From contig CAZETU010000001.1 of assembly GCA_964514585.1 (NCBI GenBank), positions 165,184 to 229,183 on the forward strand: DNA of 64,000 bases. The letters are read 5' to 3'. Within the stretch, counting starts at the first letter, position 1. Each line of letters opens with the position of its first letter. A program made the position numbers and the translations under genes. The notes beneath the pieces were generated by a model. That model was not told the DNA's origin and made no database searches. It saw only the letters and a list, made by a program, of their open reading frames with translations. Below are positions 352-34,737 of the stretch, piece after piece. This DNA is from Candidatus Woesearchaeota archaeon (GTDB lineage: Archaea; Nanobdellota; Nanobdellia; Pacearchaeales; GW2011-AR1).

Positions 352-756
352 TTAAGCAACTTTCATAACCTTTCTAATCACAATCGAAGCAACAACGCTA
401 AATCCAATATAATACCAAATCCAAGTTGAGCCCATCAACGGCGTATAAATACTTCTAAGCCAAGCAAACAAAATCAAAAACGGAATTATCGTCACAAACA
501 TCGGCCTCATCGAAGACTTAAACATAACTCCAGTCAACTTCAGCATCTCAGCATTCAATTCCTGCAAAATTCCCGGATCCTTACACCCTCTAAGCTCCTT
601 CTGAATCTCCTTTTGTCGCTTCTTCAAATTCTGCATATGCTCCTGATTCGTCAACCACTTATGCGCCAACGTAGAAATAAAAGTCACAATAATCGACACA
701 ACTATAATTGAATAAATAGGATACGCAGTCATCACCTCAACTAATGTCATCACCAT
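352..756 (-). CDS. DUF106 / archaeal Oxa1-YidC-EMC3-like membrane protein insertase
   Basis: 134 aa with 3 TM segments and a K/E-rich coiled loop (KKRQKEIQKELRG). Sits immediately downstream of secY as in many archaea. Confidence 0.55.
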   Translation of the reverse strand: MVMTLVEVMTAYPIYSIIVVSIIVTFISTLAHKWLTNQEHMQNLKKRQKEIQKELRGCKDPGILQELNAEMLKLTGVMFKSSMRPMFVTIIPFLILFAWLRSIYTPLMGSTWIWYYIGFSVVASIVIRKVMKVA

Positions 757-892: not shown

Positions 893-2257
893 TTATGCGC
901 CAAAGAATCCTTTTAGGGCTGGATTCATATCAACCGCGTGCTGCTGTGCAATATTCTGATACAACTGATACAAAATCATGATTGCCAAAAGAATCGCAGT
1001 CCCACCAACCAAAGCTCCAAGTAAATTTGCAACACTAGCCAGGATACCAATCGCAGCTCCACCCATAACCGTCAATGGCGTAACGTACCTCTTCAAAATC
1101 GACTCCAAAACTCTCTCATCTTTCCTAAACCCAGGCATACTCATCCCAGAACTAACAATCTTTTTCGCCTGACTCCTAGCATCCATCCCAGAAGTTCCAA
1201 CCCAAAAGAAGGCAAATAGAATAGAAAATAAAGTATAAAACAAAACATGACCAACAGCTTGTAAAGCATAAACCCATCTAAAACTCCCAGTAATTATCGT
1301 CTCTAAAATAGGAGTAGAATGAATCCAGTACGCAAATCCAGAAATAGGAGTCCCACTAGAAAATCCTCCAAGGAAAGTTGGACTACCCAACCAATTCTGT
1401 AACAACGACGCAAACAACTGCAAGTTAGCAGCCAAAGCCGAAACTAAAATAACAGGAATAACACCAGCATAGAAAAACTGCAAAGGCCACTTAACCGAAT
1501 GCCCCCGAATTCTATCAAACGCCAACGGAATCTCAACCTTCAAGCTCTGAGCAAAAACAACAGCCAAAAATAAAGCAGCAGTAACCAAAATAGGAAACAA
1601 CGCCCTGGCAATCCCAGTCCCATCCCCAGCAGCAACACTGACTACCAGCGCCAAAACTTTACCACTAGCCTCAAACGTCCCTTGAGTTCCTATAAACTGA
1701 AACAACTGTGAAAATAATCTCCAACCAATACCACCAGCAATAAACAAACTAACTCCAGAACCAAAGCCCCATTTCTGGATAACTTCATCCATAAAAATAA
1801 TCAGAAAACCACCAAGGCACAACTGAAAAATCACAAGCCCAGTAAACCCAGGTTCAGCCTGAATACCCTTCATCAAAACATAAACCAATGACTCGAAAAT
1901 CACAAACGCGAATGCCAACAACTTCTGCAAAGCCTGAAAAAATTTCTTACCCTCGTCAGTATTCGTATCAATATTCAAAATCTGCGCCCCATTCAGCAAC
2001 TGCAAAATAATAGAAGCCATAACAATAGGACCAATACCAAGCGAAATAATCGAACCAAAAGAAGTCCCAAGCATAATAGCCAAATATTCAAATCGTGACA
2101 TCGCATTCCCAGAAATACCAAACAACGGAATATTAGACAAAATAAAATAAAACACCAAAATCACCAACGTCCATTTCAACTTAACATTAAAACTAACCTT
2201 CTTCTCAGTCGGCCCCCTTACCTCGGGCAAATTGTGCAACAAATCTCTCAAAGCCAT
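893..2257 (-). CDS. secY: Preprotein translocase subunit SecY
   Basis: 454 aa, 10-TM profile with typical SecY motifs. Lies at the end of the r-protein operon after L15. Confidence 0.9.
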   Translation of the reverse strand: MALRDLLHNLPEVRGPTEKKVSFNVKLKWTLVILVFYFILSNIPLFGISGNAMSRFEYLAIMLGTSFGSIISLGIGPIVMASIILQLLNGAQILNIDTNTDEGKKFFQALQKLLAFAFVIFESLVYVLMKGIQAEPGFTGLVIFQLCLGGFLIIFMDEVIQKWGFGSGVSLFIAGGIGWRLFSQLFQFIGTQGTFEASGKVLALVVSVAAGDGTGIARALFPILVTAALFLAVVFAQSLKVEIPLAFDRIRGHSVKWPLQFFYAGVIPVILVSALAANLQLFASLLQNWLGSPTFLGGFSSGTPISGFAYWIHSTPILETIITGSFRWVYALQAVGHVLFYTLFSILFAFFWVGTSGMDARSQAKKIVSSGMSMPGFRKDERVLESILKRYVTPLTVMGGAAIGILASVANLLGALVGGTAILLAIMILYQLYQNIAQQHAVDMNPALKGFFGA

Positions 2258-8588: not shown

Positions 8589-8990
8589 TTAATAAATTGT
8601 ACTCGCTATTTTAGCGACCTCCTTCCATCTTTCCTGAACTTCTCTAGCAACAGATCCCTTGATCTGCGTACCCTTAGGATTCCCCTTATCATCTTTCAAA
8701 AGTGCAACAGCATTATCCGAAAAACAAACTCGCTCTCCAGTACTCCTTCTCCAAGGCTTCCTCTGCCTAACTAAAACAGCGTCGAAAATCTCGCCCTTCA
8801 TCTTAGGATCCCCTTTTCGAACAGAAACCTTGACCTGGTCCCCAATCTTAGCATAAGTCATTCGTCCCTTGCTAGTCTTACTCCCTTTAACTCCAACAAT
8901 CTTACAAATCCGAGCCCCACTATTATCACAAGCTTCCAAAATACTTCCAATATTCAAACTCCTCGTTGGTTTACCACTTACTGCTTTCAT
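8589..8990 (-). CDS. rpl14: Ribosomal protein uL14
   Basis: Contains LNIGSILEACDNSGARICKIVGVKG. Confidence 0.9.
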   Translation of the reverse strand: MKAVSGKPTRSLNIGSILEACDNSGARICKIVGVKGSKTSKGRMTYAKIGDQVKVSVRKGDPKMKGEIFDAVLVRQRKPWRRSTGERVCFSDNAVALLKDDKGNPKGTQIKGSVAREVQERWKEVAKIASTIY

Positions 8991-9355
8991 TCTACCTTCT
9001 CCTCGACATTTACTTTCTTAATTACCCTAGAAACAACAAAATGAATCATCTTCGAAATCGGCCTTGTCTCCGCAATCAAAATTAGATCTCCGACATTAAC
9101 ATCATCTTTCATACAATCAGGCAACCTAGCGTGAATCTTTGTCTTCCTCTTCTCATATCTTTCATATTTAGGCAACTTAAGCATTCTCTCAAACTGAATA
9201 GTAACTCGTCCACTCAACTTCCTTATAACAGCACCCTCAAAAGTTCGACCTCGCATCTTCAATTTATCCTTACCATGAACAGGACAAAATCTATCTTTGC
9301 ATTCGACCTTAGCCACGGCCTTCTCTGTTTTTGTTTCTTTCTTCTTTGTAACCAT
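8987..9355 (-). CDS. rps17: Ribosomal protein uS17
   Basis: Contains RGRTFEGAVIRKLSGRVTIQFER...IHARLPDC. Confidence 0.85.
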   Translation of the reverse strand: MVTKKKETKTEKAVAKVECKDRFCPVHGKDKLKMRGRTFEGAVIRKLSGRVTIQFERMLKLPKYERYEKRKTKIHARLPDCMKDDVNVGDLILIAETRPISKMIHFVVSRVIKKVNVEEKVE

Positions 9356-9360
9356 TTTAT

Positions 9361-9660
9361 TTATTCGTTGATTTGATCTTCACTAAATCCCATAGAAACC
9401 AAAATTGGTTTTATGTGACCTTTGTGATTTCCTTGCAACTCGATGACTTTGTTTTTGACTGTACCGCCACAAGCTCGTTTCATTTTGAGCTGCTTTGCGA
9501 TATCTTTTGTGTCAACGCCGTCGTCGAATCCGCTAATCATTGTGTTAACTTTCCCAAAACGCCTTTTTTCCGTCATAACATCAATCTGTTGCTGCGTTTT
9601 AGCAATTTCACCACAAACGCAAGCCGGAACCGGCAATCCACATTTCGGGCAAATATCCAC
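9361..9660 (-). CDS. Translation initiation factor aIF1/SUI1 with N-terminal Zn ribbon
   Basis: Zn ribbon CPKCGLPVPACVCGE plus SUI1 core KRACGGTVKNKVIELQGNH. Canonical archaeal position after L29. Confidence 0.75.
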   Translation of the reverse strand: MDICPKCGLPVPACVCGEIAKTQQQIDVMTEKRRFGKVNTMISGFDDGVDTKDIAKQLKMKRACGGTVKNKVIELQGNHKGHIKPILVSMGFSEDQINE

Positions 9661-9661
9661 T

Positions 9662-9823
9662 TTATACTTTTTCTCCTAATTTAGTTTGATTCTGCATAGT
9701 TAACAACCGCGCAATTTCCTTTTTAATGCTTTTCTTTTTTGTCGGATTCTTCAATAATTCGATCTTCAAATCGACAATCTTCTTCGCTGCTTCCTTATCT
9801 GTTATATTTTTTTCTTTTGCCAT
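9662..9823 (-). CDS. rpl29: Ribosomal protein uL29 (absent from the ORF track because it is under 60 aa)
   Basis: My minus-strand translation is MAKEKNITDKEAAKKIVDLKIELLKNPTKKKSIKKEIARLLTMQNQTKLGEKV. Its ATG overlaps the upstream stop by 1 nt (TAATG). Confidence 0.7.
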   Translation of the reverse strand: MAKEKNITDKEAAKKIVDLKIELLKNPTKKKSIKKEIARLLTMQNQTKLGEKV

Positions 9824-10125
9824 TATAAGACCTCGCCGTCTACCAATTTACCTAATTTTGAAATATCAAGCCCAGTTCCTCTCTCCGCTTTATCAAATTC
9901 CTTTTGCCATGCTTCTTGCCAAATGCCATACTGTTTCATGCTTTCAACGTGAGTCTCAAAGCAACCTTTAATATACCCTCTATTATTTTCTCCTACTGCA
10001 TTGTGCATTTTTAAGATATGACGATGAGCTTCCGAAGCAACACCTTCATACAATTTTTTCAGTTCTTTTCTAGCCTCACCATCACTCAAGCCTTCAACCC
10101 TCTCGTCATAAATATTCCTTTCCAT
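9823..10125 (-). CDS. Hypothetical 100-aa, probably helical, protein embedded between rps3 and rpl29
   Basis: Overlaps the S3 stop and the L29 start by 1 nt on each side, so it is translationally coupled inside the r-protein operon. No family recognised. Confidence 0.5.
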   Translation of the reverse strand: MERNIYDERVEGLSDGEARKELKKLYEGVASEAHRHILKMHNAVGENNRGYIKGCFETHVESMKQYGIWQEAWQKEFDKAERGTGLDISKLGKLVDGEVL

Positions 10126-10811
10126 TATTTCTTTTTAACCGCCCTTTTCTTCTTTACTTTCTTAACAGTCTCTTCAATTTCCTCGAAGCTAGCATTCTTC
10201 TTAACCTGATTCATAAACTCTTCATCAATCGTAATCTGGTCATGAACCTTAACGCCAGGAGCCAAAATCGCAACCTTAATTCCAACAATTCCTTGTTTTG
10301 TCTGAGCAACCGATTCAGCTCTATCAACTACACTCGCAGCGTCACCAGTTTTTTTCAAATATCCAAAAGCAAATCTCCAACTTCGAGCCCGGTCACTTGG
10401 CAACTTGCCAGAAACTCGCAACTCAGCACCAAGAGCACCACTATTCTTAATTCTACCAAGAGCCCTATATGCAGAAGCCTTATACTTCATAGCCCCAAAT
10501 CTCTCAAGTGTCAAAGCAATATCATCAGCAACCAACTGAGCATCAAACTCAGGATGCATAATCTCCTCGATATCAACATGCGGATTTTCCATCTTAAATC
10601 TCCTCTTTAAAACTTCAGTCAACTCAGCAATCTTCTCTCCTCGCTTACCAATAATCCAACCAGGCTTATGCGTCGAAACAATAATCTTCTCACCAACAGG
10701 GGTATACTCAATCTCTACTCTCGAAACCTTACCCATACCAAACATCCGCTTCACGAACTGCTTAATATTATATTCTTCCTTCCGAACATTTACAAATTTC
10801 TTTTCTTCCAT
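10125..10811 (-). CDS. rps3: Ribosomal protein uS3 (KH domain)
   Basis: Contains GKRGEKIAELTEVLKRRF and ends in a basic tail. Confidence 0.9.
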   Translation of the reverse strand: MEEKKFVNVRKEEYNIKQFVKRMFGMGKVSRVEIEYTPVGEKIIVSTHKPGWIIGKRGEKIAELTEVLKRRFKMENPHVDIEEIMHPEFDAQLVADDIALTLERFGAMKYKASAYRALGRIKNSGALGAELRVSGKLPSDRARSWRFAFGYLKKTGDAASVVDRAESVAQTKQGIVGIKVAILAPGVKVHDQITIDEEFMNQVKKNASFEEIEETVKKVKKKRAVKKK

Positions 10812-14702: not shown

Positions 14703-15353
14703 ATGGCCATCAAGACTCCAGACATTCTCCCAGGCGAAAAAGGTTATGTTTCTAAAAAAGATCGAACAGCCGTAAAAAAATCAGTCGAGAAGAAAACAAG
14801 AAGAATCACAAGAAAAAAAGAAATGACCATTGGTAAAATCAAAACTGGGTCAAAAGGTTATAGAATCGGTCGACCATCAGTAAATCCAAAAAAAGAAAAA
14901 AAATATATAATCTGGAGATACTCTCGAAAAATCGGAGAAATCGTCATTTCAAAAAGAGATACACCAGATGAAGAAATTTCTCTTAAGTTTAACAGGTTAG
15001 GAGGAATAGGGAACTACAAACATTTAATCCAGGACGCCGATTTCCAATTCCAATGGGCAGTCAAAGAACAAGAACTCCTACTAACCCAAAAAAGATGCCA
15101 CGTCTGCGGAAAACCAATTTCAAAAGCAGCAAAACCAAATCTATACCACTACAACATGTTCAAGAAACGAACAGACCTCCTCGAAGAAGCATCAAAAGTT
15201 GCTCCACAAGTCGTCTCAGGAAAACTAACAATCGAAGAAGGTTGGGAGAAATTCAATGACACCTTAGAAGAAGGAAACAGATACTACATGTCCCTAAAAG
15301 AAGCCGCACTGGTTTGCTCAAGCTGTGCTAAAAAGAAAAATCTAGAATTCTAA
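14703..15353 (+). CDS. Basic protein with C-terminal zinc-ribbon / degenerate HNH-like motif
   Basis: K-rich N-terminus. C-terminal CHVCGKPI...NLYHYNM...VCSSCAKKK gives C-x2-C ... H-x-N ... C-x2-C. Stop overlaps the next start (TAATG). Confidence 0.45.
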   Translation: MAIKTPDILPGEKGYVSKKDRTAVKKSVEKKTRRITRKKEMTIGKIKTGSKGYRIGRPSVNPKKEKKYIIWRYSRKIGEIVISKRDTPDEEISLKFNRLGGIGNYKHLIQDADFQFQWAVKEQELLLTQKRCHVCGKPISKAAKPNLYHYNMFKKRTDLLEEASKVAPQVVSGKLTIEEGWEKFNDTLEEGNRYYMSLKEAALVCSSCAKKKNLEF

Positions 15354-15601
15354 TGGAAAAAAACTGGTTCGTCTACATTCTCGAGTGCCAAGATGGCTCA
15401 TTCTACACAGGCATCACAAACGATCTCGACAAAAGGATGAAAGCTCACGCCGAAGGCAAAGGCTCCAAATATGTCCGCCATAAAAGATTCAAAAAACTTC
15501 TCCGATCAAAACAATGTGAGTCAAGATCAGACGCTCAAAAGACAGAGTGCCACATTAAGACATTACAAAAATACGACAAGTTAGATTACTTCAACCCCTA
15601 G
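15353..15601 (+). CDS. GIY-YIG nuclease domain protein (UPF0213/YhbQ-like)
   Basis: Contains WFVYILECQDGSFYTGITNDLDKRMKAH, which is the GIY-YIG signature. Confidence 0.75.
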   Translation: MEKNWFVYILECQDGSFYTGITNDLDKRMKAHAEGKGSKYVRHKRFKKLLRSKQCESRSDAQKTECHIKTLQKYDKLDYFNP

Positions 15602-24034: not shown

Positions 24035-24322
24035 TTATCCGAACAATGAAGCCAAACCTTCAGCCGCTTCAGCTTTTGGTTCTTCTTTCTTCTTTTCTTC
24101 TGGTTCTTCTGCTGCTGGTGCGCTAGCCGCTGCCGGAGCCGCTGCAATAGACGCGTTCGCAAGCTTGTCCGCGATGTCTACGCCAGATAAACTAGCAACC
24201 ATAACCTTAACCTTCGCTTCGTCAACCTCAGCGCCAGTCGCGGAAATAACTGCCTTCAAGTTATCTTCGTTGATATCCTTTCCAACCTTGTGCAACAAAA
24301 GTGCCGCATATGTGTATTCCAT
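24035..24322 (-). CDS. rpl12: Ribosomal stalk protein P1 (aL12)
   Basis: N-terminus [25 protein letters not shown]-rich hinge, C-terminus EGLASLFG. Confidence 0.85.
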
Positions 24323-24338
24323 TTTGTATTATTCAAGA

Positions 24339-25244
24339 TTAACCAAACAAGCTAGAAAGACCCGCTGCCGACTCTTCCTTTGGTTCTTCTTTTTTAGTTT
24401 CTTCTTGAGTTTGAGTTTCTGCCACAGCTTCAACAGCCACTGGCTCCGGTTCTGGTTCCCCGCTAATTATCCTACTAACAATCCCTTCCTGAACCCCAGC
24501 CTTACTTAAAATAAAATCAATAGTCGTTTCATTCATAATTCCCATCTCAACAGCAAACGGCAAAGCCCGACCAAAATCATTCATAATCATTTCGACCATC
24601 CCGTCCTTGTCAATCTTAATATCAACATAAACCTTCTTCTCATCATTATCAAAAGCAGCAATAGGCTCAATCCCAACCTCAAAAGGAATAATATCAAGCT
24701 TAGCCATAATCGACGCAACAGCCTCAGTAACTTCCTTACCTGCCTTTAAAATAACCTTATCTTTCATAACCGCAATTTTCCCATTCTCAACCTTAGGTGC
24801 AAGTCCAACAGCACTCAAAGCAGAAATATCAGGACCAGGAATCAACTCAGTAGGCCCAGCTTTAACTTCAATATCAAAAGGCGCGATCTGCCCAGCCTTA
24901 GCCTTAGCCGGACTCTTCTCATCAGCCAAAACACCAGCAATCTCAAACGCATCCTTATCCGAAAACAACATAGCCGTCGAGTCATCAACATGCTTAACCA
25001 AATCATGCAACTCTTTAATCCCACAATGACCCAAAGCAAAATTAACCAAACTCTTCTTAACAACCTGAACCTGAGCCTTGCTTCGGAGTTTCTTCTTAAT
25101 ATCCTGAAACTGCGCCGACGGCAAACCTTTAATAGAAATAACCATAACAGTTTTCTTCTTCATCAACTCAGCCAATTCCTTAACCTTAGCTTTCTTAAAA
25201 TCCGAAACATGCGTCGTAGTATCATGCTCAACAGTAACTTCCAT
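24339..25244 (-). CDS. rpl10: Ribosomal protein uL10 (P0)
   Basis: 301 aa ending in the acidic tail ...AAGLSSLFG shared with P1. Confidence 0.85.
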   Translation of the reverse strand: MEVTVEHDTTTHVSDFKKAKVKELAELMKKKTVMVISIKGLPSAQFQDIKKKLRSKAQVQVVKKSLVNFALGHCGIKELHDLVKHVDDSTAMLFSDKDAFEIAGVLADEKSPAKAKAGQIAPFDIEVKAGPTELIPGPDISALSAVGLAPKVENGKIAVMKDKVILKAGKEVTEAVASIMAKLDIIPFEVGIEPIAAFDNDEKKVYVDIKIDKDGMVEMIMNDFGRALPFAVEMGIMNETTIDFILSKAGVQEGIVSRIISGEPEPEPVAVEAVAETQTQEETKKEEPKEESAAGLSSLFG

Positions 25245-25861
25245 TACTTCTTCTCCACAATTACAACCGGCTTGGTCATAGTAAATTTAATCAAAACTTC
25301 CTTAACATTATCATTCTTCCTCGGCAAAATTTTCTCCAATCCCTTAATCGCAGCCGCAATATTCTCAACCAACTGATCATCACTCATATCTTCCTTCCCA
25401 ACAGGAATCTTAATCGCCATCTCTTTATTCTTAACCTTAATAGACTTCTTCATTTTCTCAATCATCATGTTAATCATAGCATCTTCTTCCTTAGGAATAA
25501 TTCCAGCTTGTGGCGACGGCATTTTATTCATAGGGCCAAAATATCGACCAAACTTCGTAGCAACTTTCCCCATCATCGGAGCAACCGCAATAAAAGCATC
25601 ATAACTCTTAGCCAACTTCTTAATATCCTTCCCTTCCTTATACTTCACAAAATCCTCTTCGGTAATCGTATCAATCAACTTCGACCTCTTCGTAAAAAAC
25701 CCAGCCAACTTTTTCTCACGACCATGCGGAACCATAACAAAAGTATTCAAAGCCTCTTTTCTAACATCAAAATTTTTCAAATTCACAATTAAGTCCACGG
25801 TCTGCACAAACTTCCGCTTCTTCTCTTTCCTTAACTCAACCAATGCGTCTTTAATTTCCAT
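25244..25861 (-). CDS. rpl1: Ribosomal protein uL1
   Basis: 205-aa L1 fold pattern, immediately upstream of L10. Confidence 0.85.
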   Translation of the reverse strand: MEIKDALVELRKEKKRKFVQTVDLIVNLKNFDVRKEALNTFVMVPHGREKKLAGFFTKRSKLIDTITEEDFVKYKEGKDIKKLAKSYDAFIAVAPMMGKVATKFGRYFGPMNKMPSPQAGIIPKEEDAMINMMIEKMKKSIKVKNKEMAIKIPVGKEDMSDDQLVENIAAAIKGLEKILPRKNDNVKEVLIKFTMTKPVVIVEKK

Positions 25862-33324: not shown

Positions 33325-34041
33325 ATGGCAATTGGTTATGATGACGAATTTGACTATCTCGATGAAGAGAAAGATAGCAACGCAACCGAAGACGCTTTCG
33401 CCCCAAAAATCAAGGGATCAAAAAAACAATCCTTAATGCCAGAAGAATCAGCAAACGAAGAATCAGTTGAAGAACCAGAAGAAGAAAAGAAGTCCGAAAA
33501 AGATTTAACCGAAAGAGGGAAAGCCTTAGCTAGAGAAGAAGCTAAAGCAACAGAAGCCGCAAAACCAAAAAGAGAATTTGAAAATGTGATTTTTGTAGTA
33601 AAGGTTACAACAAACAAGGAAGACAAAGCCCTTGAAATGATCGCTGACAAAGTTAAGAAGAAAAAAGTCGGAGTCTACGCACTTGCACGACCACACGGAC
33701 TTCGAGGTTACGTATTCTTAGAATCCCCTGACCGAGAACACGCAGAAGAAGCAGTCTTCAACTTACCCTACGTCAAAGGAATCATCGGCAAGACAGTAAC
33801 CTACGAAGAAATCAGACAAATGCTCGAGCCAGTCGCAGCAGACATAAAAATCGAAAAGAACGACATCATCGAAATCATCTCAGAACCTTTCAAGAACGAA
33901 AAAGCAAAAGTCGTCAGAATAGATAAAGCAAAGAACGAATGTGTAGTCTCTCTACTTGGAGCAGCAGTCCCAATCCCAGTTACAGTAAAACTAGATAATA
34001 TAAGAGTAATCAGAAGGGAGGAACTCGAAGACGAGGAATAG
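33325..34041 (+). CDS. spt5: Transcription elongation factor Spt5/NusG with ~95-aa acidic/K-rich N-terminal extension
   Basis: NGN region VIFVVKVTTNKEDKA and KOW region KAKVVRIDKAKNECVVSLLG. Confidence 0.8.
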   Translation: MAIGYDDEFDYLDEEKDSNATEDAFAPKIKGSKKQSLMPEESANEESVEEPEEEKKSEKDLTERGKALAREEAKATEAAKPKREFENVIFVVKVTTNKEDKALEMIADKVKKKKVGVYALARPHGLRGYVFLESPDREHAEEAVFNLPYVKGIIGKTVTYEEIRQMLEPVAADIKIEKNDIIEIISEPFKNEKAKVVRIDKAKNECVVSLLGAAVPIPVTVKLDNIRVIRREELEDEE

Positions 34042-34083
34042 TTTTAGCTAAAAGCTTAAAAACTAACCTTTCAAAAAAATACA

Positions 34084-34737
34084 ATGGCATTAATCAAACT
34101 TTTAGTTGAAGGCGGAAATATGACCCCAGGACCAGCGGTCGCTCAACAGCTAGGACCAATGGGAATCAACATGGGACAAGTTATTTCCGACGTAAACACA
34201 GCAACATCAGGGTTTAAAGGCGTCACAGTTCCAGTCCACTTAAACGTAGATCCAGCAACAAAGGAAGTCTCAATCAAAGTATTATCCCCACCAACTTCAG
34301 AATTAATCAAAAAAGAATTAGGAATCGAAAAAGCCTCCGGCGCAAGATTAAAACAACGAGTAGGAAATTTCGCAATTGAACAAGTAATCGGTGTATCAAA
34401 AGCAAAACACGCCAGCATGCTTTCAAACGAGTTCGTCTCAACTGTAAAATCAGTCATCGGAACTTGCCAAGCTCTAGGTGTATTAGTTGAAAGCAAAGAA
34501 GCCCCAGAAGTATTACAAGAAATCGAAGAAGGAAAATATAAAGAAGAAATCGAAGCCCAGAAAACTGATATTGATCCAGAAAAACAAAAAGAATTAGATT
34601 CATACTTTGCAGGAATTGCAGAGGAACAAGAAGCAGTAAAGAAGGCCGAGGAAGCTGAAAAGGCAGCCGAAGAAGAAAAGAAAGCCGAAGAAGCAACAGC
34701 AACCCCAGAAGCCGAAACAGAAGAAAAGAAAGAATAA
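34084..34737 (+). CDS. rpl11: Ribosomal protein uL11 with ~70-aa E/K/A-rich C-terminal extension
   Basis: Contains MTPGPAVAQQLGPMGINMGQVISDVN plus the tail EEAEKAAEEEKKAEEATATPEAETEEKKE. Confidence 0.85.
   Translation: MALIKLLVEGGNMTPGPAVAQQLGPMGINMGQVISDVNTATSGFKGVTVPVHLNVDPATKEVSIKVLSPPTSELIKKELGIEKASGARLKQRVGNFAIEQVIGVSKAKHASMLSNEFVSTVKSVIGTCQALGVLVESKEAPEVLQEIEEGKYKEEIEAQKTDIDPEKQKELDSYFAGIAEEQEAVKKAEEAEKAAEEEKKAEEATATPEAETEEKKE

Follow-up and report, generated by a model that had tools for sequence, protein, structure and literature searches.

The S10-spc ribosomal protein cluster of a Pacearchaeota (DPANN) genome carries an additional gene between those encoding ribosomal proteins S3 and L29. 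The gene lies in a 64,000-nucleotide (nt) stretch of that genome, hereafter the window, and we refer to the S3/L29 open reading frame (ORF) as ORFX. It is a real protein-coding gene, not a chance ORF, and it is rare, patchy, and lineage-restricted. We consider it about an even call that ORFX is an accessory gene of orphan status, confined to a few lineages and evolving fast, which travels in the S10-spc operon as a translationally coupled passenger and is not a structural ribosomal protein (r-protein). On the narrower question of class membership, it is probably no r-protein at all. The evidence comprises homologs that keep the same position, substitution patterns, a survey of related loci, the properties of the predicted protein, and a census of other small genes inserted into the same operon across the phylum. 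The locus is composed of the following features.

9823..10125, minus strand: ORFX, an orphan gene of 100 amino acids (aa) with an acidic (pI 5.8), predicted all-helical product, as judged from the ORF reading, syntenic homologs, selection, AlphaFold2 (AF2), and pI
10125..10811, minus strand: rps3 (uS3), 228 aa, upstream of ORFX, with Pfam domains KH_2 and Ribosomal_S3_C
10123..10127, minus strand: TAATG overlap from S3 to ORFX, a candidate termination-reinitiation junction read from the sequence
9821..9825, minus strand: TAATG overlap from ORFX to L29, a stop/start junction likewise read from the sequence
9830..9834, minus strand: Shine-Dalgarno (SD)-like GAGGT for L29, within the final ORFX codons and 6 nt 5' of the L29 ATG
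9662..9823, minus strand: rpl29 (uL29), 53 aa, downstream of ORFX, with Pfam domain Ribosomal_L29
9361..9660, minus strand: SUI1/aIF1, 99 aa, with Pfam domain SUI1, used as the anchor for measuring how far S3 and SUI1 lie apart in relatives

Apart from ORFX, the window operon is canonical and tightly packed from L3 to L15, and by Pfam the local gene order is uS3, ORFX, uL29, SUI1/aIF1, and uS17. The S3 stop codon TAA (10125..10127) shares one nucleotide with the ORFX ATG (10123..10125), giving ...AAA TAATG GAA, and the ORFX stop codon TAA (9823..9825) shares one with the L29 ATG (9821..9823), giving ...CTT ATAATG GCA. An earlier note on this DNA had placed an ORF at 9823..10125 with a 1-nt TAATG overlap on both sides, and our reading agrees with it in each respect, including an identical translation. 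The note had also remarked that the composition of ORFX resembles that of its neighbors, and it does: the GC content is 0.390 and the third-position value (GC3) 0.33, compared with 0.31-0.43 and 0.37-0.40 for the neighboring genes. Its further claim of co-expression with the r-proteins is a reasonable reading of stop/start overlaps on both sides.

We searched 1.84 billion representative proteins exhaustively with phmmer and recovered two full-length homologs of 103 aa each, P0002 (36% identity, E 2.6e-11) and P0005 (31% identity, E 2.3e-6), together with the window's own sequence, recovered as a fragment. The family therein consists of three sequence clusters; profile searching against 5.8 billion proteins and scans of metagenome contigs and of IMG/VR added no further members. 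The same phmmer search listed long repeat proteins (P0003, P0004, and P0006-P0008), and a PDB search listed the designed repeat proteins SAKe and dPPR10. These proteins are ankyrin-like or propeller-like by eye, and all were judged spurious, the former as multi-stretch matches via a short W-rich motif and the latter through matching of the same kind.

The homologs occupy the same slot. At locus L079, the order is S3 (87% identical), the ORFX homolog, L29, SUI1 (88%), S17, and L14, and at locus L082 the homolog lies between the tail of S3 and L29. At both, the S3 stop overlaps the start of the homolog and the end of the homolog overlaps the L29 start (TGATG, TAATG, or an 11-nt overlap). All three genes contain an SD-like motif 5' of L29, GAGGT in the window and GGAGGT / GGAGGGT at L079 and L082. 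The corresponding motif 5' of ORFX is strong at L079 and L082 (GGAGGGTG, AGGAGGATG) and weak in the window (AAGGGCGG). We additionally located the identical ORFX protein in several ENA and JGI assemblies, on a total of 21 contigs, with S3 and L29 flanking it in 6/6 places shown. These contigs are 99.9-100% identical to one another and therefore provide no population-genetic information. A spurious ORF or assembly artifact, for which orphan status alone would speak, deserves next to no credence: that reading is already refuted by the recovery of the same gene from several independent assemblies and by diverged homologs that retain frame, length, and position.

Conservation within the family is uneven. 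All three sequences are 100-103 aa long and retain the motif NIYD in the N-terminal part, along with the block (G/S)IWQxxWxxEFxxAxxG...KLxKxxxG in the C-terminal part. Pairwise nonsynonymous divergence (dN) is 0.58-0.72, and synonymous divergence (dS) is at least 1.0-2.1 and saturated, which places their ratio (omega) at roughly 0.35-0.58, compared with ~0.32 for the adjacent L29 gene. Despite strong AT codon bias, 7 of the 18 invariant degenerate codons differ synonymously. AF2 modeling yielded five helices, with the predicted local distance difference test (pLDDT) rising from 58 for the single sequence to 79.6 when the three-sequence alignment was supplied. Taken together, the omega values, the synonymous changes, and the improved model indicate that selection acts at least partly on the ORFX protein.

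These values bear on a different reading, in which ORFX is a translational bridge or young proto-gene, possibly of de novo origin, derived from DNA that landed between two coupled essential genes and survived only as an open frame for ribosomes passing from S3 to L29. Its frame would be selected mainly for being translated, and its protein would have little or no function. Several features fit a bridge of this kind: both junctions are seamless, conservation is strongest at the two ends of the ORF, the SD motif for L29 is embedded in the 3' end, the gene evolves fast, and no homolog was found elsewhere. The junctions of relatives also host many seamless, unrelated singleton ORFs, even mini-ORFs of ~30 codons. 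However, dN lies well under the saturated dS with an omega like that of L29, residues that never vary are encoded with synonymous differences, and length is held constant in three lineages. The fold is also predicted with fair confidence and its conserved aromatics appear core-like, while the conserved C-terminal block covers ~30 aa, far longer than an SD signal requires. We regard the bridge reading as rather improbable and retain that of an accessory gene whose protein is under selection.

A search with S3 gave 78 loci from GTDB species representatives, with S3 identity up to 90%. All except L078 (77/78) are labeled Pacearchaeota, Woesearchaeota, Nanoarchaeota/Nanoarchaeia, or plain "archaeon" and are DPANN-type metagenome-assembled genomes. 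A tblastn search with ORFX over these 78 loci retrieved nothing. Among the 74 loci that have both S3 and SUI1, the interval between the two genes is 120-281 nt in 73, room for L29 alone, versus 464 nt in the window; in loci that lack ORFX, the usual link between S3 and L29 is a direct 1-nt TAATG overlap (21 loci). Relatedness was assessed from 434 aligned residues of S3c, SUI1, S17, and L14 and a neighbor-joining tree. The nearest relatives of the window, L023 (88%) and L012 and L008 (86%), are all without ORFX, and the carrier L079 (82% to the window) is placed among non-carriers. The earlier note had stated that absence from close relatives would count against its proposal of a ribosome-associated factor. 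Such absence is largely what we observed, in 73/74 species, among them L023, L012, and L008. No donor or relative was found outside the three carrier lineages, and the GC and GC3 values fit the host. With carriers numbering three taxa, vertical descent with losses is not separable from transfers.

The upstream context of ORFX, AAGGGCGGTTAAAAAGAAATAATG, is the same as the S3-tail context preceding L29 in empty sites such as L009. ORFX is therefore placed exactly at an ancestrally coupled junction, with the overlap recreated on both sides. The short repeat ATAATGG flanks ORFX on either side, which raised the question of a target-site duplication. This interpretation was rejected because ATAATGG is the coupling motif already found in empty sites; the flanking repeat is therefore no evidence of transposition. 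A separate candidate, a deletion remnant of ORFX in L016 and L023, was also dismissed. The S3/L29 spacer in these loci, which are among the closest relatives of the window, is 84-93 nt and begins like the ORFX homologs (ATGGTAAATAA), but its local DNA alignments with ORFX from each of the three lineages scored no higher than those of shuffled sequence (p 0.09-0.85). The spacer instead consists of a short repeat that recurs at S19/L22 in L023.

The predicted protein does not resemble the products of the surrounding genes. The three family members have pI values of 5.8, 4.9, and 5.0 and net charges of -3 to -6, whereas 12 operon r-proteins examined, including S3, L29, S17, L14, L24, S4e, L5, L22, S19, L2, and L23, have pI values of 9.6-10.9. 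The dN of ORFX is 5-8x that of the S3 tail (0.11) or SUI1 (0.07) and 3.5x that of S17 (0.17). The statement in the earlier note that ORFX matches no recognized r-protein family is borne out, as neither Pfam nor NCBIfam gave a match up to E=1-10, and sequence and profile searches of PDB gave no ribosomal match. The note had recommended structure prediction followed by Foldseek; the five-helix model returned nothing below E=1 from PDB or BFVD and thus revealed no fold relative in either. Bacterial S20 chains surfaced in the PDB comparison at E 3-8 and TM 0.3-0.46, which is not significant. PHROGs matched the family only at E of at least 0.009, with a different PHROG family for each homolog, PADLOC reported nothing significant, and tblastn against phages and plasmids gave no match. 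A viral, mobile-element, or defense-gene identity accordingly finds no support in PHROGs, PADLOC, IMG/VR, BFVD, or tblastn. No ORFX paralogs were found within the window.

It is very improbable that ORFX is a familiar small protein of archaea in strongly diverged form (Rpo4, aP1, a subunit of RNase P, or an L29 duplicate). The idea draws on a weak profile match to Pyrococcus Rpo4 (E 0.044) and on the small, helical nature that ORFX shares with Rpo4, aP1, and L29; such essential proteins, however, are not expected to be absent from 73/74 relatives. The Rpo4/RpoF match covers profile positions 15-66, the variable middle alone, missing both the N- and C-terminal conserved motifs, and Pfam RNA_pol_Rpb4 is not detected. 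For the stalk protein aP1/L12, ORFX lacks a PF00428 match, and the canonical aP1 (E 7e-12) is encoded at 24035..24322 beside L10 and L1. Rpp29, an RNase P subunit, is a beta-barrel protein; ORFX is predicted to be all-helical and has no PF01868 match, and genuine Rpp29 is detectable by Pfam where present. A duplicate of L29 was rejected after hhalign comparison of the ORFX alignment with a 32-sequence L29 alignment (probability 1.9%). The earlier note had named a relocated RNase P or r-protein subunit as an outcome that would undo its proposal, and no profile match points to one.

Beyond the S3/L29 junction, gap sizes were determined for all junctions between L4 and S8 across 79 loci (L001-L079). 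Extra ORFs were counted if they stood alone and were at least 55 aa, after removal of L29, divergent L22, and Rpp29. Outlier gaps occur at 11 r-protein junctions, and 38 of the 79 loci together hold 74 extra ORFs, with a median length of ~100 aa and a pI below 7 in 41. All-against-all clustering separated the 74 inserts into 61 singletons and a few junction-specific pairs. No insert, the two in L025 included, is a relative of ORFX (hhalign probability 1.7% or less). Measured from the stop of the preceding gene, most inserts start at -4, -1, or +1. At the other end, 69/73 inserts are followed by an ORF of at least 45 aa whose start lies -20 to +15 nt from the insert stop, with modes at -4, +1, and -1.

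A few inserts are identifiable: an RNase_T/Rv2179c-like 3'-5' exonuclease between L4 and L23 (L049:1474), an HD_3/YfbR-like hydrolase between L23 and L2 (L043:1186), and a PNPOx-like protein at the same junction in another locus (L057:2022). The S3/L29 junction itself is occupied in L025 (4678-5345) by two ORFs of 112 and 109 aa (pI 6.1 and 4.8), which are coupled to one another and to the flanking S3 and L29 genes. The pair is unrelated to ORFX and has no Pfam, PHROG, or PADLOC match. Because recognizable inserts are non-ribosomal enzymes and about half of the loci are colonized, operon position is a poor predictor of ribosomal function here. The premise that a gene in this operon has to be ribosomal fails in this phylum, where unrelated inserts sit in about half of loci and some are plainly non-ribosomal enzymes. 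As a non-r-protein gene inside the S10-spc cluster that is sporadic among close relatives, ORFX is a typical member of this passenger-ORF class in Pacearchaeota.

Smaller elements were also noted at these junctions. In L016 and L023, the S3/L29 junction contains a short repeat with a mini-ORF of ~30 codons (M[IV]NKLLKQ..). Copies at L023:4685-4780, L023:2817-2883 (S19/L22), and L016:4673-4722 are ~50-95 nt long and 88-94% identical. The repeat can form a hairpin, GUUUUUCC/GGAAAAAC, which the second copy in L023 preserves through a compensatory change, GUUUUCCC/GGGAAAAC; z-scores for folding reach only -0.6 to -1.8. The repeat, which is not in the window, could be a small mobile or regulatory element. 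Similar short pseudo-ORFs recur at L020:6218, L079:2074 (L14/L24), L018:5587 (S17/L14), and L004:5200 (SUI1/S17), with the motifs ..KLKIFPWG.EK..SRGYGFAM.IDASR.. and ..YPH[RK]YKG[EK]T.WG... Their recurrence suggests that the operon junctions hold additional small elements, either repeated or structured.

The alternative closest to the earlier note holds that ORFX is an accessory ribosome-associated factor or a dedicated r-protein chaperone, which would shield basic S3 or L29 or the assembling subunit and thereby aid assembly or modulate translation. ORFX lies between S3 and L29, overlaps both, and has kept this slot in three diverged lineages, and several other non-r-protein genes of the cluster (SUI1, Rpp29) are translation-related. 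Its acidic, predicted helical product also resembles eukaryotic chaperones of basic r-proteins. One such case is Yar1, an ankyrin-repeat protein that serves as the dedicated chaperone of eukaryotic uS3; chaperones of this type are acidic and act on very basic r-proteins. Both Yar1 and ORFX are acidic and non-ribosomal, and ORFX is encoded directly after uS3, but the two lack sequence or structural similarity and the likeness is conceptual. Set against a role in ribosome assembly are the absence of ORFX from 73/74 related species despite S3 proteins that are 80-90% identical, a dN 5-8x that of S3 or SUI1, the lack of sequence or fold similarity to ribosomal, assembly, or chaperone families, and the weak predictive value of operon position in this phylum. 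We consider an assembly factor or chaperone unlikely. The lineage-specific ribosome-associated factor suggested in the earlier note is thus unsupported for a gene that is acidic, fast-evolving, and so rarely present.

Several considerations nevertheless weigh against our preferred interpretation of ORFX as a coupled accessory passenger. SUI1, Rpp29, and SecY, which are non-r-protein residents of the cluster, proved to be linked to translation or protein biogenesis, so position keeps some weight. That three lineages diverged to ~35% identity keep the slot might point to a functional tie with S3 or L29 and not just to simple inheritance. Acidic proteins can associate with ribosomes, as the P-stalk and dedicated r-protein chaperones illustrate. 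The neighbor-joining tree on 434 residues does not fix the number of independent losses or transfers. Expression of ORFX is inferred from the sequence, and any molecular partner is speculative.

For the passenger interpretation, we infer the following mode of expression, entrenchment, and loss. ORFX, without signals of its own, would be transcribed on the operon mRNA. Ribosomes ending S3 at UAA would start again at the AUG that overlaps it and read through the 100 codons of ORFX; at the ORFX UAA, they would re-initiate on the overlapping L29 AUG, aided by GAGGU in the last ORFX codons. L29 and later genes would thus obtain ribosomes through the ORFX relay. If L29 translation is relayed in this manner, ORFX must stay open and in register and would become entrenched even though its protein is dispensable enough that almost every relative lacks it, which may partly account for inserts that are both seamless and persistent. 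The ATAATGG repeats would allow clean, microhomology-mediated loss that restores the ancestral S3-TAATG-L29 junction, a route that fits the patchy distribution of ORFX. As predicted, the product is acidic and soluble, with some five helices packed into a bundle; aromatic residues form a conserved stripe (I68-W69-Q70...W73...F77), and NIYD lies in the N-terminal part. It would most likely act by binding other proteins, not ribosomal RNA.

A broader and more tentative proposal, which we lean against without discounting it, concerns the operon as a whole. ORFX would then be one visible case of a phenomenon not previously described: the S10-spc junctions of Pacearchaeota may be a harbor or cradle for many unrelated, fast-evolving small genes and mini-ORFs, seamlessly spliced in and each kept open as a ribosome relay to the next essential gene. 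Inserted or repeat-derived DNA would thus be forced into high-level translation and could mature into new proteins by de novo or cassette-like birth within the most conserved of operons, and some of these, possibly including ORFX, may later have been co-opted as lineage-specific ribosome modulators.

Published systems offer partial parallels. In one survey, every non-Asgard archaeon examined except one had an unbroken S10-spc cluster, and an Hsp20 gene inside the cluster of some Thor- and Odinarchaeota was described as an unusual horizontal gene transfer (HGT) in some Asgard (PMC10833476). Like ORFX, the Hsp20 insert is a non-ribosomal gene with a sporadic phylogenetic distribution in an otherwise invariant cluster. 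Hsp20, however, is a known, widespread family and its presence is read as HGT, whereas ORFX is an orphan of three known clusters with no known fold relative and overlaps on both sides. The Asgard insertion is also exceptional, in contrast to the frequent and diverse inserts of Pacearchaeota, and given that survey the operon-wide pattern appears unusual for archaea.

Translational coupling of overlapping genes has experimental precedent: 13 of 14 overlapping gene pairs, 9 of them archaeal, were strictly coupled (Huber et al. 2019, PMC6728339). Those pairs are co-directional, with a stop/start overlap (ATGA or TGATG, compared with TAATG for ORFX) and an SD-like motif in the upstream gene, and ORFX shares these properties, having stop/start overlaps on both sides together with an SD-like motif in the upstream gene. 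The published work covers gene pairs, whereas ORFX is a third gene spliced between two ancestrally coupled genes, and its coupling is predicted from the sequence.

Lineage-specific archaeal r-proteins offer a further comparison. L45 and L47 were found by proteomics (Marquez et al. 2011, as cited in PMC6393860). They represent the class that the earlier note had envisaged and are similar to ORFX in being small, lineage-restricted, unannotated, and once hypothetical; they were found physically in ribosomes, whereas ORFX is acidic, occurs in three known lineages, is absent from the nearest relatives, and is known from genes alone. Prokaryotic species-specific orphan genes are described as short, fast-evolving, and taxonomically restricted, without detectable homologs and with origins not established (PMC11293555). 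ORFX resembles them in size, rate, and restriction, but it sits in the most conserved operon and not in a genomic island or prophage.

ORFX constitutes a new orphan protein family, and such families of uncharacterized function are common in DPANN genomes. Taken singly, the gene is of modest interest. The S10-spc cluster, however, is regarded as almost unchanging and serves for phylogeny and binning, and the pattern of coupled passengers across the whole operon is more notable and merits systematic study. Should the pattern hold, it would advise caution with "guilt by association" annotation in DPANN r-protein operons. It would also suggest that very small genomes may express accessory genes through translational coupling in place of their own promoters, and it would allow the question whether genes arise more readily where translation between coupled genes is enforced to be put to a natural test. 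Were ORFX to bind S3, L29, or the ribosome, archaeal ribosomes would differ in composition or partners at the strain level, with ORFX as an example of such heterogeneity.

Additional observations concern the genes around ORFX and elsewhere in the window. The uL29 protein is just 53 aa in the clade of the window, with a Pfam match limited to its C-terminal half (model positions 34-56 of 57), and is 62-85 aa in deeper relatives. Among the r-proteins compared, it evolves fastest (58% identity, dN 0.33). Rpp29 lies between SUI1 and S17 in the deeper Pacearchaeota loci L066, L067, L070, L072, L073, L075, and L076. In the window (8987-9660), SUI1 and S17 are 5 nt apart with no Rpp29 at the junction, and close relatives likewise have none there.

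Toward the other end of the operon, a GNAT acetyltransferase gene on the opposite strand (2359-2766, plus) lies between L15 (2769..3266) and SecY (893..2257) and breaks the co-directional cluster, and an EMC3/TMCO1 (YidC-like) gene follows SecY at 352..756. Upstream of the operon and on the opposite strand, positions 14703-15601 encode a 216-aa protein with no Pfam match and a stand-alone, 82-aa GIY-YIG nuclease-domain protein, whose genes overlap by 1 nt. The L1-L10-aP1 genes (minus, 24035-25861) are ~7.5 kb apart from Spt5-L11 (plus, 33325-34737), and L11 is unusually long in the window, at 217 aa.

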